Below are positions 1,650-61,584 of a DNA stretch of 64,000 nt, piece by piece. A program made the translations under genes and the position numbers. Origin of the DNA: an uncultured Candidatus Saccharibacteria bacterium (lineage in GTDB: Bacteria; Patescibacteriota; Minisyncoccia; Phycocordibacterales; UBA918); assembly GCA_964611205.1 (NCBI GenBank), contig CAZSZB010000004.1:12121-76120 (forward strand), in the 5' to 3' direction. How positions within the stretch are numbered: position 1 is the stretch's first letter; each line of letters begins with the position of its first letter. Below the pieces are notes generated by a model. That model searched no databases and was not told the DNA's origin. It saw only the letters and a list, made by a program, of their open reading frames with translations.

Positions 1650-3407
1650 TTGATCTTTTTTATGCGTATACAAGATGAACAATTAAAGCGCTTTATCACC
1701 GATGCAGGTCTGGTGTCTAAGGCTGATATAAAAAAAGCTGAACAAGTTGCTAAAGAAGAGAAACGTACCTTAGCTGAAGCTTTGATGGCTGCTGGAATGA
1801 TGAGCGAAGATGATTTACGTCGCGTGGAGTCGTATGTTCTGGGTATTCCTTTTGTTTCCCTTAAAGACACAAAGATTGATTTTTCTATACTATCCCTAAT
1901 TCCCGAACCAGTTGCTCGAAACCACAACATTATCGCTTATAAACAAAATGAAAACTCCCTTGAGGTAGCGATGCTTGATACAGCCGATTTGCCAGCCATA
2001 GATTTTATTAAGAAAAAAGTTGGTTTAAAGATTTTGCCACGCTTAACAGATGAGGGATCTATGCGCGATGCTCTGCGGCAGTACCAAAAAACTCTTAAAG
2101 CTGAATTTGGTGATATTATCGCTAAAGAATCTTCTGCTCTAAAGATTATTTCCGAAGATAGTGAAGGAGCTAGTGAAGCTGATTTAAAAAAACTGGCTGA
2201 AGATTTACCAGTTGTGAGAATCGTCGATACTTTACTCAGACACGCTATTATCCAAGGAGCCTCTGATATTCATATTGAACCGATGGAGACAGAACTACTG
2301 ATTCGTTACCGGATTGATGGAGTGTTGCGTGACGCTATGACTCTGCCTAAACATGCTGCTGCAACTATTGCTGCTCGAATTAAAGTTTTAGCTAATCTAA
2401 AATTAGACGAAAAACGTTTACCACAAGATGGTCGTTTTAAAATGGAAATGGATGGGCAGAAAGTATCTTTTCGAGTTTCGGCACTACCAATTTTCTTTGG
2501 TGAAAAAATTGTAATGCGTTTATTGCGAGAGAATCGGTCGGGCTTTAGTTTAGAGGGAGTCGGTTTCCACGGTTCGACTTTGGAAAGGGTGCAAGATGCC
2601 ACACGTCAGACTACTGGGATTATTTTAGTGACTGGTCCAACTGGCTCAGGAAAATCAACTACTCTTTATTCTGTCCTTGATTTACTCAATACACCAGAGG
2701 TAAATATCTCTACCATTGAAGATCCGGTCGAGTATCAGATGCCTCGGGTCAATCAGACGCAAGTAAAACCAGATATCGGATTTACTTTTGCGAAAGGTTT
2801 ACGTTCTCTAATGCGTCAAGATCCTGACATAATTATGGTAGGAGAAATTCGTGATCAAGAAACAGCCAGCCTAGCTATCAATGCTGCTTTGACTGGTCAC
2901 TTAGTATTGGCTACGGTACATACCAACTCTTCGTCAGCCACAGTGGCTCGTTTGCTTGATATGGGGGTAGAGAAGTTTTTGTTAGTTTCAACCCTGCGGG
3001 TAGCGGTAGGACAGCGTCTAGTTAGACGATTAAGTGACAATAGTAATTCTTATATTTTATCTGTTAAAGAGCGTGAGGCTTTAGCTAAACACGCCGATCT
3101 TGATTTAGTATTAGATACTTTGAAAGAAGAGGGGGTGGTTAAAAGTTCGGCTACTTGGAACAGTATTCCTTTTTATTACCCGTCTGAAAAAGAGGGTGGT
3201 GATGGTTATAGTGGTCGAGTAGGAATTCATGAGGTATTAGCTATGTCGCCTACCATAAAGGATTTGGTTATGGCTGATGCTACAGCTGACGATATTGAAA
3301 AACAGGCCCGTAAAGAAGGAATGCTAACTATGCTTGAAGATGGAATTTATAAAGCTGCCCGCGGCGTCACTTCAATTGAAGAGGTATTGCGTGTAATAAG
3401 CGAATAG
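1650..3407 (+). CDS. pilB: Type IV pilus / type II secretion assembly ATPase (GspE/PilB family)
   Basis: The 585-aa protein has a Walker A motif (GPTGSGKSTT) and the N-terminal domain typical of GspE ATPases. Confidence 0.85.
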   Translation: MIFFMRIQDEQLKRFITDAGLVSKADIKKAEQVAKEEKRTLAEALMAAGMMSEDDLRRVESYVLGIPFVSLKDTKIDFSILSLIPEPVARNHNIIAYKQNENSLEVAMLDTADLPAIDFIKKKVGLKILPRLTDEGSMRDALRQYQKTLKAEFGDIIAKESSALKIISEDSEGASEADLKKLAEDLPVVRIVDTLLRHAIIQGASDIHIEPMETELLIRYRIDGVLRDAMTLPKHAAATIAARIKVLANLKLDEKRLPQDGRFKMEMDGQKVSFRVSALPIFFGEKIVMRLLRENRSGFSLEGVGFHGSTLERVQDATRQTTGIILVTGPTGSGKSTTLYSVLDLLNTPEVNISTIEDPVEYQMPRVNQTQVKPDIGFTFAKGLRSLMRQDPDIIMVGEIRDQETASLAINAALTGHLVLATVHTNSSSATVARLLDMGVEKFLLVSTLRVAVGQRLVRRLSDNSNSYILSVKEREALAKHADLDLVLDTLKEEGVVKSSATWNSIPFYYPSEKEGGDGYSGRVGIHEVLAMSPTIKDLVMADATADDIEKQARKEGMLTMLEDGIYKAARGVTSIEEVLRVISE

Positions 3408-3419
3408 CTTTAATATTTT

Positions 3420-4643
3420 ATGAAATTTACATACAAGGGAAAAGATTCTAGTGGACAATCAGTTACTGAAACTGTTGAAGCCAAAGATCGTTTTGCCGTT
3501 TATGAGATAGCCAGAGAAAATGGTCATACAGTTGAAAGTGTTCATGGGGAGCGTAAATTTTCATTGTTTGGATTTCTAAATATAGAAGCTATCAATTACC
3601 ACCTGAGTCGAGTTAAAGATGACGAGTTGGTTATGATGACCAGAAACCTAGGTTCTATGTTGGTGGCTGGACTAGCTCTTTCAAGAGCTCTGTCGGTAAT
3701 CGAAAGACAGTCCAAAAACCCTAAATTAAAAGGAGTCATTAAAGATATTGAAAGTCAGATTAATAAAGGAGAAACTTTCAATACTGCTTTGGCTAAGTAT
3801 CCAAAAATATTTAGCGATCTGTATATTGCTATGGTCAGAGCAGGTGAAGAAGGAGGAAAATTATCCGAAGCCCTACACACATTAAGTGTGCAGATGGAAC
3901 AGTCTTCCGCTTTGAAGAAGAAAATTAAAGGCGCAATGATTTATCCCATTATTGTTATTGTAATTTTGGTTATCATTGGCGCCTTAATGATGATTTATGT
4001 GATGCCTTCTATCACTGGCACCTTCAAATCTTTGAATACTGAATTACCAGGCACTACTAAATTACTTATTGGGGCTAGTGATTTTATGGTTGCTCATACT
4101 GTGTCAGTGGTTATAGGAATGTTCGGATTGGTTTTTGGGTTTGTATACTTCCTTAGAACTAAGTGGGGAAAGATTACTAGTTCTTGGATAATTCCGAAAT
4201 TGCCAGTGATTGGTTATATGGCTAAAGAGGTAAATTCGGCTCGAACAGCTCGCACCTTATCGTCCTTACTTAGTTCTGGAGTAGATGTGATCCAGGCTCT
4301 TAATATTACAAAAGATGTTTTACAAAATGTTTTCTATAAAGAAATTGTGGCTGAGGCCGCTTTGCGAGTTGAGAAAGGTTTACCTTTATCTGAGGTTTTT
4401 ACAGAGCGAGATGATTTATATCCAATATTAGTAGGAGAGATGATTATGGTTGGAGAGGAGACTGGTAATATTTCTCAAATGCTAGAGCAGATGGCTATCT
4501 TTTATGAAACTGAGGTCGAGCAAAAAACAAAAGATCTCTCCACCATCATTGAACCTCTCCTAATGGTTTTTATCGGTGCCTCAGTCGGATTTTTTGCTCT
4601 AGCGATGATCGCTCCAATTTATTCTCTGTCGGATAGTATTTAA
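3420..4643 (+). CDS. pilC: Type IV pilus platform protein (GspF/PilC family)
   Basis: The 407-aa protein has duplicated T2SS-F domains and three membrane segments, and lies directly after pilB. Confidence 0.85.
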   Translation: MKFTYKGKDSSGQSVTETVEAKDRFAVYEIARENGHTVESVHGERKFSLFGFLNIEAINYHLSRVKDDELVMMTRNLGSMLVAGLALSRALSVIERQSKNPKLKGVIKDIESQINKGETFNTALAKYPKIFSDLYIAMVRAGEEGGKLSEALHTLSVQMEQSSALKKKIKGAMIYPIIVIVILVIIGALMMIYVMPSITGTFKSLNTELPGTTKLLIGASDFMVAHTVSVVIGMFGLVFGFVYFLRTKWGKITSSWIIPKLPVIGYMAKEVNSARTARTLSSLLSSGVDVIQALNITKDVLQNVFYKEIVAEAALRVEKGLPLSEVFTERDDLYPILVGEMIMVGEETGNISQMLEQMAIFYETEVEQKTKDLSTIIEPLLMVFIGASVGFFALAMIAPIYSLSDSI

Positions 4644-4647
4644 AAAT

Positions 4648-6405
4648 ATGCATTTTAAAATACCAACTTTATCTAAAACACAAAGGGGTTTTAGTTTGGT
4701 TGAGGTTATAGTAGCCGCCTCCTTACTGGTGATTATTTTTGGAGGTCTGTTTTTAGGGTTTAAATATATGATTGAGTTGGTTAGTACAACTAAAGTTCAG
4801 TCTGGAGCTTTAGCGGTGGCAACTGACGAGATGGAATATTTACGATCTTTGTCTTATAACGAACTGGGTACTGTTGGCGGTGTACCAGCTGGAAATATTC
4901 CGCAAAATAGTACTACTACCTTAAATGGCATTGTCTATACACAGGAAATTCTTATTCAGTATGTAGATGATCCGGCTGATGGTTTAGAAGGGGCTGATGA
5001 AAATTCCATTACTACAGACTATAAGCAAGTAAAAGTGAAGGCGTCTTGGGATATTAAGGGTGTACCAGGATTTATTTCGTTGGTTTCCAATATTATTCCG
5101 GCTGGCATGGAAACAACCGTCGGCGGAGGAACAATTAAAGTAAATGTATTTGATTCTAAAGTCAGTCCTTTATCTGGTATACCAGTACGTTTCGTAAATA
5201 ATACTTCGTCAACTACTATCGATACCGTTCGCTATACTAATTCAAGCGGTGTAGCTTATCTTTCGGGTGCACCAGCGGCTGCTGATTACCAAATTTTTGT
5301 AAGTGACACAGGTTATTCTACTGACAGTACATACTTAGCGACGACAGCAAACCCAAATCCTAACACTCCACCAGTTGCGGTTTTAGAAAATCAGGTCTCG
5401 ACGATGAATTTTCAGATAGATAAGTTAAGTGATTTAACAATAACCACCGTAGCTCCTAGTACCGACGAAACTTTCTCTGATAATTTTGCAGACGTATCAA
5501 AATTATCTTCACTGTCTAACACGGTGGTTAGTAGCGGTAGCTTGATGCTCGCTGGTGGTCCTGGAGCTTACGCTGTTAATGGGTTGGCTGTCAGTAATCC
5601 GGTTGCCCCCGGCACGATAAAGGAATGGCAGGCAGTTGAATTTTCTGCCACTACCAGCTCTGCAACTGGGATAAAAATTTACATAATGTCTGACCATGGA
5701 GCTGGCTTAACTCTAGTATCAGACACTGATTTGCCTGGCAATAGTTCTGGCTTTTCTAATTCACCGATTGATTTGTCTAGTTTATCAGTAACTTCTTATC
5801 CCAATTTATCTTTACAAGCTGAACTTTCTTCAAGTGATGTTAATGATACCCCTTCTATAAATGATTGGTCTTTATCATATATTAAATCCCAGTCACCAAT
5901 AGCTGGAGTTGCGGTCTCTGTTTTAGGTAATAAGACTATCGGTACAAATGAAGGGGTTCCAGTTTTAAAACATGAATACTCTGGCTCTACTAATGCCTCA
6001 GGACAAATTAATTTGTCAGATATTGAGTATGACAGATATGCCATTGTGATTAATGGGAGTAGCTATGATGTAAGTGAGGCCTGTCCGCTCGTACCATATT
6101 CTCTTAGTCCAGACACTACCGGATCTATAAAGATGACGTTGGTACCGAAGCAGAACAATAGTTTGCGAGTGAGTGTTGTCGATTCTGCCGGTCAACCTAT
6201 ACCAAATGCAGATGTTCATCTTAAGAACACGGGCATCGATGAGTTAGAATCGTCCTCCTTGTGTGGTCAAGTTTATTTTGGTAATAGCTTGTATGAATCT
6301 AGTGATTACACACTGTCGGTGGGGGCTAATGGCTATTTGTCAGAAAATTTGATCGGCCTATCAATCAGCAGCTCTTCTAATATAAGTGTTATTCTAAGTC
6401 AGTAA
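4648..6405 (+). CDS. Large protein with a prepilin-type N-terminal cleavage/methylation leader (giant pilin or pseudopilin)
   Basis: The N-terminus KTQRG|FSLVEVIVAASLL fits the prepilin peptidase motif (Gly at -1, Glu at +5) followed by a hydrophobic helix. The 585-aa protein is Ser/Thr-rich. Confidence 0.7.
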   Translation: MHFKIPTLSKTQRGFSLVEVIVAASLLVIIFGGLFLGFKYMIELVSTTKVQSGALAVATDEMEYLRSLSYNELGTVGGVPAGNIPQNSTTTLNGIVYTQEILIQYVDDPADGLEGADENSITTDYKQVKVKASWDIKGVPGFISLVSNIIPAGMETTVGGGTIKVNVFDSKVSPLSGIPVRFVNNTSSTTIDTVRYTNSSGVAYLSGAPAAADYQIFVSDTGYSTDSTYLATTANPNPNTPPVAVLENQVSTMNFQIDKLSDLTITTVAPSTDETFSDNFADVSKLSSLSNTVVSSGSLMLAGGPGAYAVNGLAVSNPVAPGTIKEWQAVEFSATTSSATGIKIYIMSDHGAGLTLVSDTDLPGNSSGFSNSPIDLSSLSVTSYPNLSLQAELSSSDVNDTPSINDWSLSYIKSQSPIAGVAVSVLGNKTIGTNEGVPVLKHEYSGSTNASGQINLSDIEYDRYAIVINGSSYDVSEACPLVPYSLSPDTTGSIKMTLVPKQNNSLRVSVVDSAGQPIPNADVHLKNTGIDELESSSLCGQVYFGNSLYESSDYTLSVGANGYLSENLIGLSISSSSNISVILSQ

Positions 6406-13572: not shown

Positions 13573-15183
13573 ATGAGTGGTTTTTCTTTTTATGCAGGAA
13601 TATTTGGTTTTTGTTTAGGAATTCTCGGTCATGAATTTTTAGGTTTTGATTTACTGATAAGTGTTTGGACACTACTTCTGGCACTAGCGGTGGCTTTAGT
13701 GTGGCGTAAAAATCGTTTATCGATTTTTACGCCATTTATTTTGGCTCTCTGTATTTTGTTCCTATTTTTGTCTTTTGGTATTGTGCGTACTGAGTTTGCC
13801 GATTGGTATGGAGTGAGTAATTTTCCAGACAGTGAGGTCAATCAGGAGGTTTCCTTAACAGGAGTTATCGTGCGGGAGGTAGATAGGCGGGAAAAAACAC
13901 AGCACTTATATATTAGTGATGGAGCAGAAAAGTTTTTAGTGATAACAGATAGATTTTCTGATTTTTCTTATGGTGATGAGGTCGTTGTCAAAGGTATTTT
14001 AAAACAACCAGAAGCATTTGCGACCGATTTGGGTAGGACTTTTAATTATCCTGGTTATTTGAAAACTCAAGGCGTAAATTTGATGTTTATTTATCCTGAA
14101 GTTGATAAATTATCGACTGGTAATGGAAATTATGTTTTAGCTACACTACTCAGTTTCAAACAAGCTTTTATGTCCAAGATAGAAAGTCTGATTGCTGAAC
14201 CAGCGGTTGGTTTGGGCGAGGGTTTGTTGTTGGGGGTGAAGCGAGCTTTGGGTGACGAACTGGAGTTAATATTTAGGCGAACTGGCATTATTCATATTGT
14301 AGTACTTTCTGGCTATAACGTTTCTTTGGTCATTCTTTTTGTGATGTATATCTTAGCTTACATACTACCGTATAGAGCTAGATTACTAGTAGGGATGCTC
14401 GCCATTGTAGCCTTTTGTCTTTTAGTAGGACTCTCGGCGACCGTTTTACGGGCTGGTTTAATGGCCTCGCTGATATTGTTGGCCAGATTCACTGGCCGCA
14501 CAAACTCTGTGATGAGAGGATTAATGTTAGCCGGATTTTTAATGTTACTTATTAACCCTTATTCGTTAGCTTATGACGTTGGTTTCCAATTGTCTTTTTT
14601 GGCCACTATGGCTCTAATTTTGTTAGCTAAAAAAATTGAGTCAATTTGTGGTTTTATGCCTGAAACTCTTAAGTTGCGAGAATTCTTTGTTGCTACTTTA
14701 ACTACTCAACTTTTTGTATTGCCATTACTTTTATACCAAATCGGGGAATTCTCACTGGTTTCGTTAATAGTTAATGTTTTGGTTTTGCCGATGGTGGCAC
14801 CAGCTATGCTACTAACTTTTTTAACCGGAATGATTGGTTTTGTTTCGCTATCTTTAGCCTGGCCTTTTGCTTGGTTAGCTCAATTATCCCTTGAATATAT
14901 CTTGGCGGTGGCTCGTTTCTTTGGCGGTCTGTCTTTTGCTGCTTATACAGTACCAACTTTTCCATTTTGGTTGGTAATGTTGTTTTATTCTTTATTAGCT
15001 TACGTTGTTTGGCAGCTGCTTCGAGAAAGTGCAGAACTAGACTCTGTGAAAAAGGGTGAGCCACCAATCAGACCTGATGTTAATCATTGGGAAATAGAAG
15101 ATGAGATAAGTTTGTTAAAAAAACTTAAGGAAAAAGAAATGTCACCAAATGATAATAAAGAACTACCAATATTCTTTCGCTAA
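13573..15183 (+). CDS. comEC: ComEC/Rec2 DNA-uptake channel, membrane competence domain only (no beta-lactamase domain)
   Basis: The 536-aa polytopic membrane protein has ComEC-type architecture but lacks the C-terminal metallo-beta-lactamase domain. Confidence 0.7.
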   Translation: MSGFSFYAGIFGFCLGILGHEFLGFDLLISVWTLLLALAVALVWRKNRLSIFTPFILALCILFLFLSFGIVRTEFADWYGVSNFPDSEVNQEVSLTGVIVREVDRREKTQHLYISDGAEKFLVITDRFSDFSYGDEVVVKGILKQPEAFATDLGRTFNYPGYLKTQGVNLMFIYPEVDKLSTGNGNYVLATLLSFKQAFMSKIESLIAEPAVGLGEGLLLGVKRALGDELELIFRRTGIIHIVVLSGYNVSLVILFVMYILAYILPYRARLLVGMLAIVAFCLLVGLSATVLRAGLMASLILLARFTGRTNSVMRGLMLAGFLMLLINPYSLAYDVGFQLSFLATMALILLAKKIESICGFMPETLKLREFFVATLTTQLFVLPLLLYQIGEFSLVSLIVNVLVLPMVAPAMLLTFLTGMIGFVSLSLAWPFAWLAQLSLEYILAVARFFGGLSFAAYTVPTFPFWLVMLFYSLLAYVVWQLLRESAELDSVKKGEPPIRPDVNHWEIEDEISLLKKLKEKEMSPNDNKELPIFFR

Positions 15184-48520: not shown

Positions 48521-48721
48521 ATGAAAATCTTTAGAGATTATGTCATGACTTGGTGGCAAGTCGGACTGCTCAAAGCCTACGTGTTTATTGTTGGTTTAAT
48601 CATCGGTTCATACTTTGCAGATTTATTTGTTCAGTATATAAAACTGATGTTGGTGGTAGCAATTATTCTAGCCATTTATTTCTTATATAAGATGTTTTCA
48701 GATGGTTTTAAGCCGGGGTAA
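48521..48721 (+). CDS. Small membrane protein
   Basis: 66 aa with two transmembrane helices. Confidence 0.4.
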   Translation: MKIFRDYVMTWWQVGLLKAYVFIVGLIIGSYFADLFVQYIKLMLVVAIILAIYFLYKMFSDGFKPG

Positions 48722-48742
48722 GCTAGAGGCCAATTCTCTGAA

Positions 48743-48774
48743 CAAAAAACACTCGTCACGAGTGTTTTTTGTTG
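48743..48774 (+). terminator. Intrinsic terminator
   Basis: Stem AACACTCG, loop tca, stem CGAGTGTT, followed by six Ts. Confidence 0.65.
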
Positions 48775-48964
48775 ATTGGTGAAATTCAACAAATGTGCTG
48801 GTTAATATTTGATGACCAAAGGTTCTGTAGAAGGGGAGATTTTCGGTCAAAAATATGTTTTTAAACTAATTTATACACCACATTTCATTGTATTAGTCAA
48901 TTGATTTAAACAAGACATTTCATTAATGTAAAGCCCCATTTGGATTGGATAGGAGGATAATCCA

Positions 48965-49336
48965 ATGAAGAAGTTCTTTTCGGCGGCAGCTGTCTGTCTG
49001 CTTACCCTTACGGGAGCTGCCTATGCTGATCATCTTCATGAAGGTGACAGCTTCGTAGGGGGCTGGCAATTCTACAACAGCAACCCCGGCAACATCAAGA
49101 TCGGAGACGGCAACGGCTGGGCTCTGGACTTGCGGGGTACTGATCGGTACTGCGTCTCGCCTGGTGCCGGCTACAGCACCATGACCAGCTACATCAGCAG
49201 CAACTACCCCAGCCACGTCTCGTGGTTCGTGGATGAGATCTGCACTGATGGGTATGTGCGGATCTGCGTCTACTCCGGGAGCGGCAACCTGGCCTGTTCC
49301 ACTTACTGGGACAATGGCTGGGTGAGACTCGATTAG
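48965..49336 (+). CDS. Secreted Cys-containing small protein with atypical composition (about 58% GC against a ~40% background)
   Basis: It has a signal peptide (MKKFFSAAAVCLLTLTGAAYA), a GGAGG ribosome-binding site, and strongly GC-rich codon usage. Confidence 0.6.
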   Translation: MKKFFSAAAVCLLTLTGAAYADHLHEGDSFVGGWQFYNSNPGNIKIGDGNGWALDLRGTDRYCVSPGAGYSTMTSYISSNYPSHVSWFVDEICTDGYVRICVYSGSGNLACSTYWDNGWVRLD

Positions 49337-49361
49337 GAGTCGCGAACTCTCTTCGCACACT

Positions 49362-49400
49362 CAAAACGGCGGCTTCAAAAGAGCCGCCGTTTTCTATTTG
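49362..49400 (+). terminator. Intrinsic terminator
   Basis: Stem AACGGCGGCT, loop, stem AGCCGCCGTT, then TTTCTATTT. Confidence 0.65.
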
Positions 49401-49426
49401 GGGTATGGAGGAATTGGCATTTAACT

Positions 49427-49484
49427 CTTCACGAATAAAAATGGCCCAACCAAAATGGTTGGGCGATTTTTATACTCGTGGAAG
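49427..49484. repeat. Copy 1 of a ~58-bp palindromic repeat element
   Basis: cttCACGAATAAAAATgGCCCAACCA aaa TGGTTGGGCgATTTTTATaCTCGTGgaag. Confidence 0.7.
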
Positions 49485-49614
49485 ACTTTGCACCAAGTTG
49501 ACCTAGTTTTTAATGACTGGAAGGAATATAAAAACGGAAATACTCTGGTGGTGAAAACCTCTTTGATTGAAATGGAGTGTGCTAATTTTCTTAAAATAGT
49601 AGACTTGTGGTGAT

Positions 49615-50187
49615 TTAAAAGCCAACCTCAGATTTTACTTTCTCAAACATTTTTTGATATCCAGCCGCGTTGGGATGTAAACCATCGGCTAAGTCAGTAA
49701 TTGGGTCCACTACATCAATGACGGAGATGAAATGATAGTTATGCTCATCGGCTACTTTCTTGATTATAGAATCGTATTTTTCTATTTCCTCGTTTAAAAA
49801 TCTACTTCCACGAACTGACCTCCATTCATCGTCTACTCTGGTAAGTCCCACAAGTGTGATTTGGTCTGTGTAATTTTTGGCTTGTTGGAGTAGTTTATTT
49901 AGGTTTTGTTCAAATTCTGCGGGAGGAATTTTGTTTATATATGATTCACTAGGGAATTTGGAGTCATTTATACCGATGGCAAAAACAACCTTATCTGGTC
50001 CAATTGCCTTGGCTTCAATATTAAAACGTTCTAGCAAGTCTTCTGACGTCTCACCACAGATGCCAAAATTATATAGCTGGTTGTAGTCGTCAGCCGGTAG
50101 TGTTTTCCTAAGTCTACCAGCCCAACCAAGTGCTTCTGAATCACATGAGCCAAAAGTAATACTATCTCCCCAAATTCCTATTTCCAT
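49615..50187 (-). CDS. SGNH/GDSL-family hydrolase (lipase or esterase)
   Basis: GDSIT block near the N-terminus; 190 aa. Confidence 0.7.
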   Translation of the reverse strand: MEIGIWGDSITFGSCDSEALGWAGRLRKTLPADDYNQLYNFGICGETSEDLLERFNIEAKAIGPDKVVFAIGINDSKFPSESYINKIPPAEFEQNLNKLLQQAKNYTDQITLVGLTRVDDEWRSVRGSRFLNEEIEKYDSIIKKVADEHNYHFISVIDVVDPITDLADGLHPNAAGYQKMFEKVKSEVGF

Positions 50188-50197
50188 GCAGGTATTC

Positions 50198-50234
50198 TAC
50201 CAAAAAAACAAAAAGCTTACTCAGTCTGAGTAAA
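50198..50234 (-). terminator. Intrinsic terminator on the minus strand (upstream of the hydrolase gene)
   Basis: On the minus strand: stem TTACTCAG/CTGAGTAA followed by GCTTTTTGTTTTTTT. Confidence 0.5.
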
Positions 50235-50267
50235 CTTCCATATTCTTCCACATATTTCTATGTTCTA

Positions 50268-50419
50268 GTGGAGATAGGGGAACCCGCTTTTTCTAATTCG
50301 TTACACTCATAAGAACGCTGGTCGCAGCTCGCTTGTTTTCTTTTTAGGGGGAAAAGAAAACATAGCTCCGCTGGTTCAACTCCCCACGAAAGCAAAGCAG
50401 TTTGCTTTCTCCATCTCCA
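50268..50419. repeat. Cluster of partial copies of the tmRNA 3' terminus (att-like scars), closed by an 8-bp GTGGAGAT/ATCTCCAC pairing
   Basis: At 50268-50287 gtggagatAggggaacccgc is a degenerate direct copy. At 50373-50419 ggttcaactcccc..ccatctccac is an inverted copy with an inserted hairpin. Confidence 0.55.
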
Positions 50420-50474
50420 CGAATAAAAATCGCCCAACCAAAATGGTTGGGTGATTTTTATACTCGTGGAGATG
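50410..50474. repeat. Copy 2 of the palindromic element, extended by ccatctcc/ggagatgg
   Basis: ccatctccacgaataaaaatcgcccaaccaaaatggttgggtgatttttatactcgtggagatgg. Confidence 0.7.
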
Positions 50475-50483
50475 GGGGGAGTT
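50465..50483 (-). repeat. 19-bp direct repeat of the tmRNA 3' end (att-like)
   Basis: gtggagatggggggagttg is identical to 50664-50682. Confidence 0.7.
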
Positions 50484-50664
50484 GGTCACGTATTACTAAG
50501 TATATTATTTCGCTTTGCTCATAATTTACTAAGTGTTCTCGACCCGGCCTCGCCGACAAGCACTCCCTTCGGTCGTCTTGTGTACCGGCTCCGGCTTTCA
50601 ACTCCCCTCATACTCTCACAAACGCAAAGACTCCAAAAGCTTACACTTTTGGAGTCTGCGTATT

Positions 50665-51060
50665 GTGGAGATGGGGGGAGTTGAACCCCCGTCCGAATTG
50701 ATGTGTTAAGGTGCGTCTACAGTGTATAGTCAACTCTTTGGTTTAAAGTAGGTAGCTAAAGATATGACGAGACATTACCTACTCGAGTCCGCAGAATTTC
50801 ACTTCTCTTTGCAGACAAAAAGGGAAGTATATTCTCATGATATTACACCAACATTCTCTTATGAGAACTCAGAAAAGTTGATGTCGTCATCGGCGAGCGA
50901 GTAAAACTACGCTGTCGCGAATGCGAAGTCCTTTGCAGTGAAGAAAGGACTTTTTACGCTATTCTTTGCACGTAAAAGTGACCAAATTTTAACGCAGGTC
51001 TTGGTCAACTGCGACACTGCACACAATAACAGAGCATCAACCGTCGATGCCTGGCATCCC
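50665..51060 (-). ncRNA. ssrA: tmRNA (SsrA), standard one-piece form
   Basis: The 5' GGGGAUGCCAGGCAUCGACGG matches the conserved GGGGnnG..GGAUUCGACGGG. The 3' GGACGGGGGUUCAACUCCCCCCAUCUCCA(A) is a tRNA-like T-arm plus acceptor. The acceptor GGGGAUG/CAUCUCC has a G3-U wobble (the Ala identity element), and CCA is not encoded. A putative tag reading frame GCA AAG GAC UUC GCA UUC GCG ACA GCG UAG follows a CGUAAAAAG..-like leader. Confidence 0.8.
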
Positions 51061-51269
51061 CCAGCCGTGCTTTTTGTAAATATATAGCTAGTTTTAAAAA
51101 TAGCTAAGTCATCTGTTAAGTGCATAAAAAATGTGATTCGAATTACAAAAAGTACGGCTGGGGAAGTATGTGCTGATTTGGATACAGAGAGATGGTGCGC
51201 AACCTGACGAGGATTGTCTGGTTGCGCAAAGGTGTGCGAAGAGCGTCTAGCTAGGACCGCTCCTGATGG

Positions 51270-51593
51270 TTATAGGCCGTAGGCTTCACGGACGATATCT
51301 TCGTTATCCGCCTTATGCTCTCCCAGCCACTGCTTCATGACGCCGATCATGGCGTCAAGCAGTTCTTCTCGGATATCATTTCCGAGATTGTTATGGGAAG
51401 CCCGACAAGCAGCTTCACCAGCGGTTTCGAACACCGCCTCGAGCAGGTCGAAAAATTGTTCAGTAGAGGCTTCCGCAAAAGCCTCATCGAACTCCTCCTG
51501 GTTGTTGTTGAAGACTTCGACCAGAACCTTTTCCCGGTAGGAATCGAATTCGGTCTCGACTTTCTTCTCAAAACTAATAATACTCGACATCAC
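51270..51593 (-). CDS. Acidic hypothetical protein in a GC-rich (~52%) segment
   Basis: 107-aa ORF with composition atypical for this genome. Confidence 0.45.
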   Translation of the reverse strand: MMSSIISFEKKVETEFDSYREKVLVEVFNNNQEEFDEAFAEASTEQFFDLLEAVFETAGEAACRASHNNLGNDIREELLDAMIGVMKQWLGEHKADNEDIVREAYGL

Positions 51594-55792: not shown

Positions 55793-55809
55793 AACTTTAA
55801 TAGATAAAA

Positions 55810-55848
55810 ATAAAAACGACCTAGTGAACTAGGTCGTTTTTATTTTAT
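55810..55848 (+). terminator. Intrinsic terminator
   Basis: Stem AACGACCTAGT, loop gaa, stem CTAGGTCGTT, then TTTTATTTT. Confidence 0.7.
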
Positions 55849-55925
55849 GATTTATTACCAACAGTGGTATTAGTTTGTTTATTACAACTAAAGACTACAG
55901 AGGTAGCTAAGTTAAACAATACTTT

Positions 55926-55998
55926 GTCCGCCGGCTTGGACTCGAACCAAGGACCACGGAGGTATAAGCTCCGCGCTCTACCAACTGAGCTACCGGCG
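55926..55998 (-). tRNA. tRNA with anticodon UAU (reads AUA; tRNA-Ile(UAU) type)
   Basis: Read on the minus strand: CCGCCGG-UA-GCUC-AGUUGGUA-GAGC-G-CGGAG-CUUAUAC-CUCCG-UGGUC-CUUGG-UUCGAGU-CCAAG-CCGGCGG-A. All stems are perfect, U33 and A37 are present, and CCA is not encoded. Confidence 0.75.
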
Positions 55999-56173
55999 GA
56001 CAAAATATTTTTTAAATTTATACAATTCTTGATTTTGTCTCATCTAAAAGCTCAAATAGAGCTATTCGAATCGAACAATAAGCATTGATTCCCAACTGTG
56101 CTACTGGAGCATCAGTTGGTGCACAAAACTATACCTTGTGGCAAAATTTTTTGCAAAAATTTTGCCACCTACA

Positions 56174-61408: not shown

Positions 61409-61495
61409 GGAGAGTTGGCTGAGTGGTCGAAAGCGCCTCACTGCTAACGAGGTAAGGTGTAAAAGCCTTCAAGGGTTCGAATCCCTTACTCTCCG
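61409..61495 (+). tRNA. tRNA-Ser (anticodon GCU), class II with a long variable arm
   Basis: GGAGAGU acceptor stem, anticodon loop CUGCUAA, a 19-nt variable arm, T-arm AAGGG-UUCGAAU-CCCUU, and discriminator G. Confidence 0.8.
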
Positions 61496-61499
61496 CGAG

Positions 61500-61535
61500 T
61501 ACCAAAACCCAAAGCATACCTTTGGGTTTTGCTGT
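61500..61535 (+). terminator. Intrinsic terminator after tRNA-Ser
   Basis: Stem CAAAACCCAAAG, loop catacc, stem TTTGGGTTTTG. Confidence 0.6.
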
Positions 61536-61560
61536 ACCTCGCGAGAGAGTAAGGGATTCG
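61533..61560. repeat. Inverted partial copy of the tRNA-Ser 3' end
   Basis: ctcgcgagagagtaagggattcgaa is the reverse complement of ttcgaatcccttactctc(c)gcgag. Confidence 0.6.
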
Positions 61561-61584
61561 AAAAGCTTTTGAGCTATTTTCAAG

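Follow-up and report, generated by a model that had tools for sequence, protein, structure and literature searches.

The stretch of DNA analysed here (64 kb, hereafter the window) comes from a Minisyncoccia/Paceibacteria-like bacterium of the Candidate Phyla Radiation (CPR), whose closest SmpB among GTDB genomes is 80% identical. It carries ssrA, the gene for transfer-messenger RNA (tmRNA), which encodes the tag AKNSVKSPFFTAKDFAFATA and ends in ...CCAUCUCCACAA, with CCA not encoded. Because ssrA is on the minus strand, its 3' end has the low coordinate and downstream runs toward 50268. Copies of this 3' end recur downstream of the gene in direct and inverted orientation, and we conclude that they are the building blocks of a conserved, gene-less module of about 200 nt that is present in two tandem copies. 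Loci fetched from other genomes for comparison are given L numbers.

Two tandem modules behind ssrA

A preliminary description of this DNA reported that the last 19 nt of ssrA are repeated exactly at a short distance from the gene, and this was borne out with coordinates one base to the right of the 50465-50483 and 50664-50682 given there. The repeat, GTGGAGATGGGGGGAGTTG, occurs at 50466-50484 and 50665-50683, two matches where 0.01 are expected in the window, and the copy within ssrA runs from T-loop residue C56 to the base past the discriminator. The inverted copy reported to carry a hairpin with a 9-bp stem also exists. It consists of GGTTCAACTCCCC (50373-50385) and CCATCTCCAC (50411-50420), exact in both blocks (13 and 10 nt), on either side of a 25-nt insert at 50386-50410 that forms the 9-bp stem with a loop reading GCAG on the plus strand; the gapped pattern has one match against 0.00 expected. 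The degenerate direct copy at 50268-50286, identical at 14 of 19 ungapped positions, is weak taken alone but is backed by homology, since it aligns together with its native flank to the ssrA end of L015 and holds the terminal position in the module profile. Three further features were absent from the preliminary description: another inverted copy, degenerate in sequence, at 50596-50619; two stretches of 57 nt that repeat each other with 95% identity (49426-49482 and 50414-50470); and the even spacing of the three direct copies, which lie 198 and 199 bp apart. None of the ssrA-end repeats in the window is expected by chance.

These copies belong to two modules of about 199 bp that stand in tandem, unit A (50466-50664) and unit B (50268-50465). 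Read in the sense of the gene, each module has the order X1, terminator, X', a core ending in ...GTGAC, and X2. X1 is the replacement 3' end, from T-loop C56 to the end of the gene, and X2 is the older, displaced 3' end. X' is a complement of about 23 nt to the T arm and acceptor 3' region of the intact gene; its first part is anti-acceptor (about 10 nt) and its second part is anti-T-stem/T-loop (about 12 nt), and a conserved hairpin with a CTGC loop divides the two at the boundary between acceptor and T stem. Together X1, the terminator and X' form a single long palindrome, and the core has three helical arms. The right junction of the module, with the sequences read by eye, is ...GTGAC|C56-R57-A58. 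The second part of X' in unit B includes the complement of G52-T55, and so it spans the insertion junction T55|C56. The terminator hairpin of unit A acts as the present tmRNA terminator. Neither unit contains an open reading frame (ORF) with a family match, and thus neither has the integrase within the element that characterises Islander-type islands.

Table 1. Features of the ssrA locus in window coordinates.
Feature	Position	Strand	Basis or remark
tmRNA gene (ssrA)	50663..51061	minus	ARAGORN; Rfam RF00023, 116.9 bits; low-coordinate (3') end also placed at 50665
X1, first direct-repeat copy, final 19 nt of ssrA (CAACTCCCCCCATCTCCAC)	50665..50683	minus	Register of the Rfam alignment
Empty attB core TCCACA for L002-type island	50664..50669	minus	L002 junctions; same island left end in L030 and L023
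Unit A, 199 bp including terminal repeat	50466..50664	minus	nhmmer E=5e-35
Unit A terminator hairpin	50628..50657	minus	12-bp perfect stem (13 pairs by terminator scan), T-rich tail
Unit A X', degenerate antisense of ssrA end (GTGAGAGTATGAGGGGAGTTGAAA)	50596..50619	minus	Without CTGC hairpin
Unit A structured core, long subtype, CGGAG ... GGGTCGAGAACACTTAGTA - hairpin - TATACTTAGTAATACGTGAC	50485..50595	minus	Alignment; consensus helices
Second exact 19-nt copy, X2 of unit A and X1 arm of unit B palindrome	50466..50484	minus	
Unit B, 198 bp, short subtype	50268..50465	minus	nhmmer E=3e-43
Unit B bidirectional terminator hairpin T1, centre of palindrome X1-T1-X'	50423..50461	both	
Unit B X' part 1 (GTGGAGATGG), antisense of acceptor 3' strand	50411..50420	minus	Also in L011, L017, L022, L024
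Conserved hairpin GAAAGCAAA-CTGC-TTTGCTTTC	50386..50410	minus	The inserted hairpin of the preliminary description; identical 22-mer elsewhere; stem covaries, 9/9 pairs
Unit B X' part 2 (GGGGAGTTGAACC), antisense of T stem and T loop including G52-T55	50373..50385	minus	
Unit B structured core	50287..50372	minus	Module alignment, profile, consensus fold
Degenerate third copy (CGGGTTCCCCTATCTCCAC), displaced about 400 bp	50268..50286	minus	Aligns with flank to L015
Ancestral tmRNA 3' flank and native terminator T0 (hairpin 50211-50239)	50190..50267	minus	
GDSL/SGNH hydrolase gene, lineage-specific cargo	49615..50187	minus	Pfam PF13472, 9e-30; relatives' loci lack a homolog
Second copy (95%) of [TCCAC - terminator T1 - GTGGA]	49426..49482	minus	
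123-aa secreted-protein gene, lineage-specific	48965..49336	plus	55-58% GC, foreign composition

Insertion and displacement at the ssrA end

The arrangement in the window recurs in independent assemblies of five samples (ERZ27247346, ERZ926210, SRR31940689, SRR30309628 and SRR8449813), in which strain contigs were recognised by an identical SmpB or GDSL protein and are 99.2-100% identical to the window. The repeats are not an assembly artefact, a doubt that had been raised at the outset. In two strain contigs, L007 and the site-spanning L099, the end of ssrA is joined directly to 50465 and exactly the 199-bp unit A is missing, with breakpoints that fall precisely at the 19-nt repeat. Presence/absence polymorphism downstream of ssrA, anticipated in the preliminary description, is therefore found among nearly identical contigs. 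Other strain contigs end at 50665 or begin at 50484, which is expected of a real branch if the assembly word size exceeds the 19-nt repeat; the Logan assembler uses a word size of k=31. The polymorphism of unit A could also have arisen if the 19-nt repeats gave rise to a deletion between them, or if alleles were exchanged through transformation. The window has competence and pilus genes that bear on the idea of ssrA-flank alleles spreading by transformation: ComEC (13573-15180, plus strand), a T2SSF-family gene (3420-4640, plus) and a T2SSE-type ATPase, matched by one ORF that is probably the neighbouring 1662-3404 (plus).

In L015, the 3' end of the tmRNA gene together with its native flank and terminator can be aligned with 50268-50286 and the following 70 nt or so of the window, and this homology identifies the degenerate copy as the ancestral 3' end of ssrA. 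Two insertions have placed this end and the native terminator about 400 bp from the gene. The ssrA 3' end is a real and currently active insertion site at which successive insertions displaced older 3' ends, as had been proposed. Units A and B are only 57% identical to each other, compared with 74% between unit A and its closest modules, which are from other species, and 84% and 79% between unit B and, respectively, L121 and the tmRNA-linked module of L022. The two units therefore represent two old lineages, not a recent duplication.

Beyond the modules, the order smpB-ssrA ... SET-infC-rpmI-rplT is conserved in L011, L022 and L033, and the GDSL ORF, the 123-aa GC-rich ORF and a 107-aa ORF are all absent from the ssrA locus of these three relatives. 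The conserved synteny without these ORFs indicates that about 48722-50663 is a variable stretch. The GDSL and GC-rich genes accordingly hold up as variable cargo, with no counterpart at this locus in relatives, but the island boundary once placed near 48900 does not: no detectable repeat lies there, and a search for an outer relic of the tmRNA end bounding the island gave a best local alignment (48826-48842) that scores at the shuffle median. The two copies of the 57-nt repeat have a period of 988 bp and bracket the core of unit B, the displaced end and the GDSL gene, an arrangement that is cassette-like, as between two palindromic sites. The 107-aa ORF (51270-51593, minus strand) lies between smpB and ssrA and has about 51% GC in a genome of about 38% GC. 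Neither it nor the 123-aa ORF has a significant Pfam match or a homolog in the relatives' loci, the 107-aa ORF having one sub-threshold match to KicB; both are probably recent acquisitions.

A larger element uses the same end of the gene. In L002, and in part in L095, 7.0 kb are inserted between the tmRNA and unit A. One junction is ...CATCTCCACA|TCCTGGG... (...catcTCCACA|tcctggg) and the other is ...GCTATGTCCACA|ATACGC... (...gctatgTCCACA|atacgc); they have only TCCACA in common, which places the insertion at CCAC|A, and comparison of these junctions with the window shows that the window is a precise empty site for the island. The island encodes a 561-aa large serine recombinase (PF00239, 5e-20; PF13408, 2e-8; motif IYCRVSSDRQ) whose reading frame crosses attL into the tmRNA end. 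Homologs with 42-44% identity occupy the same ssrA-adjoining position in L030 and L023, where the left end of the island is also conserved (CCAC|ATMCTSRGRATT). The domain makeup of the protein (an N-terminal resolvase catalytic domain with the serine motif and a zinc-ribbon recombinase domain) and its length, within the usual range of about 450-700 aa, together with a short att core lacking a long duplication, are those of large serine recombinase systems, and on these features the L002 island is predicted to be an integrative element of that type. Its excised form would show the circle junction ...GCTATGTCCACATCCTGGG.... In L023 (10906-11075) the recombinase island sits behind a second, displaced copy of the tmRNA end, 157 nt past the gene, and so the site of the recombinase can be any copy that keeps ...CCATCTCCAC|A. 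Scans of viral contigs for the CTGC hairpin, for a conserved 20-mer of the core and for relatives of the L002 recombinase were all empty, and they thus give no sign of a phage attP origin.

The preliminary description suggested looking for tyrosine integrases, and none was seen at any of these loci. The integrase actually seen at the site is the large serine recombinase, which crosses over at TCCACA and does not use the 19-nt repeat. The closest precedent, both for the hotspot and for the L002 island, is found in the ssrA islands of Dehalococcoides, in which a CcrB-like serine recombinase, DsiB, is encoded on the reverse strand by attL with its frame running into the end of ssrA (PMC3146451). 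Those islands are tandem, some lack an integrase, and their 20-bp repeat starts midway through the T loop (PMC3146451). The L002 island is similar in that ssrA is a hotspot for multiple islands and in the placement, strand and frame of its recombinase. In contrast, the L002, L023 and L030 islands cross over at the very end of the gene with a 6-nt identity (TCCACA) and reside in CPR hosts, and no DsiA, ParB or Mom module was seen in them. The locus thereby documents a family of large serine recombinases that targets the extreme 3' end of tmRNA in Patescibacteria.

These islands raise the possibility that the modules are miniature cis-mobilisable elements of large-serine-recombinase islands, moved in trans by the recombinase of L002, L023 and L030 or by a DsiB-like relative. 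Such islands are found at the same tmRNA end in at least three species, the L023 island stands behind a module-like unit, and the DsiB islands combine mid-T-loop insertion in ssrA and 20-bp repeats with tandem arrays and integrase-less members (PMC3146451). However, the crossover at TCCACA lies at the extreme 3' end with 6 nt in common, and corresponds neither to C56 nor to the 19-nt repeat. The recombinases examined in context, those of L002, L023 and L030 among matches that also include L019, L043 and L217, were found only beside tmRNA, whereas modules adjoin many tRNA genes. Furthermore, the double-strand sites of large serine recombinases require neither X' nor a folded core. We regard this origin of the modules as quite improbable.

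A module family at tRNA and tmRNA genes

In four relatives (L011, L017, L022 and L024) a terminator comes after the tmRNA 3' end, and beyond it lies the antisense of the gene's own 3' end; units of about 200 nt align with A and B: two in L011, one each in L017 and L024, and one and a half in L022. Modules linked to tmRNA span species down to about 54% SmpB identity. A search with the module profile (nhmmer) returned 150 hits in 100 sources, and a scan of metagenomes for the 22-nt hairpin found more than 119 stretches; the identical 22-mer is present in three other species (L011, L017 and L022) and in strains of the source species. Eighty listed hairpin loci (L100-L179) were annotated by ARAGORN. 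In these the hairpin follows tmRNA or a tRNA gene (tRNA-Lys, Met, Gly, Arg, Ser, Val, Thr, Phe, Leu or Glu) at a distance of 1-60 nt and on the same strand; after tRNA-Trp the distance is 241 nt. Overall, modules are found at more than 12 kinds of tRNA gene besides tmRNA in Paceibacteria-type CPR genomes. They measure 130-250 nt, form arrays of up to five units and always have the orientation of the upstream gene, with a final terminator after the last copy.

Among all fetched loci, 56 of 227 tRNA and tmRNA genes are followed by a direct repeat of their last 17 nt, in most cases at a distance of 60-350 nt. In GTDB loci X' was found at 7 of 48 genes in a mostly-CPR set, and neither X' nor the hairpin was found at any of 21 genes in a mostly non-CPR set. 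The tRNA-Ile(TAT) gene of L017, L021 and L022 carries a module in which X1, X' and X2 match tRNA-Ile. The window's own tRNA-Ile(TAT) (55793-55999, minus strand) is without a module, and the relatives' orthologue has one to three units (L017 1530-1800, L021 5170-5900, L022 6880-7320), a difference by gain or loss at an orthologous locus. The 74 ORFs that flank modules included no recombinase, transposase or reverse transcriptase among the 25 commonest of 65 matched families, the most frequent being housekeeping families. Likewise, the window ORFs tested included no recombinase or reverse transcriptase; one of these family comparisons covers the 25 most frequent of 92 families, so that small or unusual recombinases elsewhere in the window could have escaped it. 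Targeted literature searches found no description of the modules, and the family appears to be undescribed.

Two observations at other tRNA genes are of related interest. In the window at 61409-61562 (plus strand), tRNA-Ser(GCT) is followed by a terminator (about 61504-61531) and then by GCGAGAGAGTAAGGGATTCGAA at 61541-61562, a near-perfect antisense of the final 21 nt of that tRNA. Gene end, terminator and antisense thereby make up a palindrome, without CTGC hairpin, core or direct copy. In L015 (1411-1740) tRNA-Ile(TAT) has a mini-insertion that differs in type from the module: it is gene-less, 230 nt long and bounded by direct repeats of 38 nt, which start in the anticodon stem/loop.

The breadth of the family bears directly on how the ssrA-end copies were first understood, namely as independent att scars of gene-carrying islands or prophages of the tyrosine integrase type, with the stretches of about 180 bp between them as random leftovers. 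Duplication of the ssrA 3' end from the T loop is indeed the classical signature of tRNA and tmRNA islands (Islander, PMC4383910), there is precedent for ssrA islands that stand in tandem, have 20-bp repeats and include members without an integrase (PMC3146451), and the locus holds lineage-specific cargo genes, one of them strongly GC-rich and foreign. Random leftovers, however, would not share a length (198/199 bp), an internal order, a covarying fold and an invariant hairpin, and these features hold in dozens of species and at more than 12 tRNA genes. No tyrosine integrase is found at these loci, nor any outer scar bounding a larger island. The copies had been called nested, partly inverted and rearranged, and put down to repeated integration and excision or deletion. 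They do not result from repeated integration, excision or inversion; the inverted copy with its hairpin is constant, a fixed component of the module that always matches the local gene. Thus the view of ssrA as an active, serially used integration hotspot stands, while the copies themselves are not rearranged scars but constant parts of a structured module family. For the units of about 200 nt the scar model is largely refuted, and we consider it very unlikely.

The fold of the modules was analysed from a structure-blind MAFFT alignment of 32 diverse modules with RNAalifold. Besides the hairpin, the predicted consensus has a closing helix and two arms, one of them short and the other long and irregular, and 40 of its 46 pairs show compensatory changes. 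Paired cells amount to 91% compared with 70% in shuffles, double-change cells to 306 compared with 90 +/- 8, and the covariation score is 0.553 compared with 0.19 in shuffles and about 0.09 in slid controls; none of 500 shuffles reached the observed value on any of five measures. Such strong covariation argues that the modules are conserved folded elements. Unit B alone has an RNA fold z of -4.2, and its minimum-energy fold departs in detail from the consensus, for which reason we rely on the comparative structure. Rfam 15, searched over 48700-51300 at E<=10 and over 3900-6400 of L109 at E<=1, gave nothing plausible, and its threshold-level matches were to tmRNA and tRNA only. We rejected the permissive matches as microRNA-like noise driven by the palindromes, along with a spurious 'permuted tmRNA' caused by the inverted copy. 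Readings of the core as hammerhead-like or group I-like were also dropped, since by eye the motifs did not fit and Rfam was silent.

The sequence of X' tracks each species' own T arm. Its anti-T part fits the functional gene context (X1) better than the displaced copy X2 in 37 of 43 informative cases, with the reverse in 4, where the functional context compared includes G52-T55, to the left of the repeat boundary. For the anti-acceptor part X1 is favoured over X2 by 22 to 2. Both halves complement a single strand, the sense strand, over about 10+13 nt. The better fit to X1 including G52-T55 indicates that X' is the complement of an uninterrupted target spanning T55|C56.

A conserved fold is also what would be expected if the modules were structured non-coding RNAs retained by the host and transcribed with, or just after, the tRNA or tmRNA. 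Their roles might be in 3'-end processing, control of read-through or tRNA-related regulation, with X' and X2 serving as closing helices and tandem copies arising by duplication and homologous exchange. Several observations fit such a role: the covariation is strong despite about 60% identity within a genome, the hairpin sequence is extremely conserved, orientation always follows the upstream gene and a terminator closes the last copy, several modules are fused to the tRNA without an intervening terminator (L145, L156, L162 and L175), G:U pairs outnumber A:C pairs (28 to 14) when the sense strand is counted, no recombinase is nearby, and tmRNA-linked modules persist across species as distant as noted above. 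Yet a host RNA leaves unexplained why the closing helices copy the 3' end of the neighbouring gene exactly from C56, and why X' prefers the functional gene to X2 (37 to 4). Nor does it explain why only a minority of tRNA genes has a module, why the orthologous tRNA-Ile carries modules in some species but none in the window, and why unit number varies among strains. We view the host RNA as the main rival explanation, serious but rather unlikely.

Possible modes of spread and related systems

The data support a gene-regenerating insertion architecture, at least two successive displacements, polymorphism of unit A and a serine-recombinase island at the same end of the gene; the mode by which the modules spread is what we infer. 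The explanation that we favour overall, and hold to be somewhat probable, is that they are trans-mobilised T-loop insertion modules complementary to their target. The modules would be non-autonomous insertion elements that enter the T loop between T55 and C56 by conservative site-specific recombination. As no recombinase adjoins them, the enzyme that moves them would be encoded elsewhere and act in trans. Each module brings its own X1, and the split gene is thereby regenerated, as with islands in tRNA genes. X' would be the part that recognises the target, and the core may be a scaffold for a protein partner. In one option, X' would be a guide made of nucleic acid, paired to the sense strand on both sides of the insertion point. 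In another, X' would be the second arm of a folded single-strand hairpin, X1-terminator-X', that mimics the double-stranded target, and integration of such a hairpin would yield the observed order X1-loop-X'-body-X2.

Several points weigh against this explanation. Neither an excised or circular form nor an autonomous master element or a partner enzyme was found. Within one genome (L178), the copies that follow different tRNA genes are by eye about 60% identical, a divergence that argues against recent bursts of transposition and is equally compatible with a functional RNA kept by vertical descent, its fold being selected in place. Unit A, which is polymorphic and lies next to the gene, has a degenerate X' and lacks the CTGC hairpin, whereas the X' of the distal unit B is perfect, which is the opposite of a simple model in which the newest unit is the most intact. 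In some loci (L111 and L124) the duplicated stretch runs through the terminator, so that the left insertion boundary is not fixed. Loss of unit A by slippage between the 19-nt repeats needs no dedicated machinery. Evidence for the strand is also weak; the ratio of G:U to A:C is the 28 to 14 mentioned above, counted in the core helices, and this excess weakly favours the tRNA-sense strand as the folded one. Finally, X' pairs over about 23 nt with one strand, whereas bridge RNAs and seekRNAs use short guides to both (PMC11208160, PMC11187229). The divergent copies, the decayed X' of unit A and the duplication through the terminator are the reasons why a host-retained RNA remains a serious rival.

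Trans-mobilised T-loop modules have partial counterparts among several known systems. Islands of the Islander/TIGER type, those of the T-loop 'sublocation' being nearest to the modules, insert into the 3' part of a gene, supply a new 3' end and leave the displaced fragment at their far boundary (PMC4383910). The modules are similar in that the gene is split and regenerated, the displaced 3' fragment is distal and tandem arrays carry older fragments outward. They differ in their size of 130-250 nt, in having no genes or integrase, and in their extra antisense copy of the target and folded core; an integrase inside the element is found only in the separate 7-kb island of L002. Cis-mobilisable elements (CIMEs), which go together with accretion at the att sites of integrative elements, are reportedly flanked by att sites and lack recombination genes; they share one site with an autonomous element, arranged in tandem, and their mobilisation is presumed to occur in trans. 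CIMEs are decayed relatives, several kb long, of integrative conjugative or integrative mobilisable elements, unlike the modules, which are discrete structured units of about 200 nt at many tRNA genes. The CIME concept is cited in the study of the Dehalococcoides islands (PMC3146451).

The second option for X' has its own possible parallels. The attP of CTXphi and integron attC sites are imperfect palindromes recombined as single-stranded DNA by Xer or IntI; their two inverted arms resemble the target and, once folded, make a hairpin that mimics the duplex target, and extra-helical features mark the strand. The modules have a palindrome, X1-terminator-X', in which X' tracks X1, but they have no linked enzyme of the Xer or IntI type and their target is the T-arm/acceptor region of tRNA. 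Moreover, if the element were excised as a circle, pairing between X' and X1 would be confined to C56 onward, yet X' also complements G52-T55.

The first option points to systems guided by nucleic acids, of which CPR bacteria are already known to hold unusual RNA-guided examples. Bridge RNAs and seekRNAs have guides of 4-9 nt to each DNA strand and lie beside a protein gene (PMC11208160, PMC11187229). TIGR systems, which occur in CPR bacteria, pair over 9-12 nt with each strand and are built as arrays of units of about 36 nt (edge repeat, 9-nt spacer A, loop repeat, spacer B) beside a gene for the Nop-domain protein Tas (PMC12045711). The modules share with these systems a guide-hairpin-guide layout, segments that covary with the insertion site and a size of about 150-250 nt. 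Unlike them, the modules complement about 23 nt on a single strand and have no adjacent protein gene. Their units of 130-250 nt are not those of TIGR-Tas, and no Nop-domain family is present among the 25 most frequent of 65 matched families. We rejected the reading of the modules as IS110 bridge RNAs or TIGR units on the basis of this guide logic and the missing protein gene.

A looser relation to IS110/IS1111 elements, with the modules as orphan genes for bridge RNA or seekRNA or as miniature derivatives, has some observations in its favour. In L109 (3900-7035), tRNA-Asp and a 27-nt repeat of its 3' end, starting at T54, enclose an IS110-family transposase gene (5086-6168; PF01548 and PF02371); this one IS110-family element uses the tRNA T-loop site that the modules use. 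It is followed by five modules of 136 nt in tandem, and a LAGLIDADG ORF is found just upstream of the tRNA-Asp. By eye, the left non-coding end of this element appears to have the order terminator, anti-acceptor-like segment, hairpin and anti-T-like segment, and the L116 module terminates in the element's right-end motif, TACTGAACATGTAATG. Orphan seekRNA copies are described for Pseudomonas (PMC12288879). On the other hand, only one IS110-family gene occurs in 218 loci and none in the window, and the non-coding regions of the element have no sequence similarity to the module profile. Bridge RNAs and seekRNAs, besides addressing both strands with their short guides, use a 2-nt core, and IS110 insertion does not produce repeats of 19-27 nt. 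An IS110 origin of the modules therefore seems to us quite improbable.

In its more specific form, our proposal is that the modules are undescribed gene-less insertion elements guided by nucleic acid, or tRNA-linked guide-like RNAs that serve a trans-encoded enzyme, and that they are widespread in Paceibacteria-type CPR bacteria. We offer this form tentatively, as a possibility. If it were true, the system would be naturally 'reprogrammed' to more than 12 tRNA targets through a bipartite complement of about 23 nt and a scaffold of about 100 nt. If the modules are mobile, they would be the smallest known elements to use the split-and-regenerate strategy at tRNA genes, with no gene of their own, and would point, in CPR bacteria, to a previously unknown insertion machinery that acts in trans and may be guided by nucleic acid. 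Should they be host RNAs instead, they would form an abundant and apparently undescribed class of structured RNA at the tRNA and tmRNA 3' ends of reduced genomes. Either way, the modules confound island finders that take any duplicated tRNA 3' end as an island boundary.

At the opposite end of ssrA, the window has a 21-nt inverted repeat (95%) with a 63-nt spacer at 51059-51163, CCCCAGCC...GGCTGGGG|GATGCC, whose proximal arm overlaps the first bases of the 5' end of the gene.

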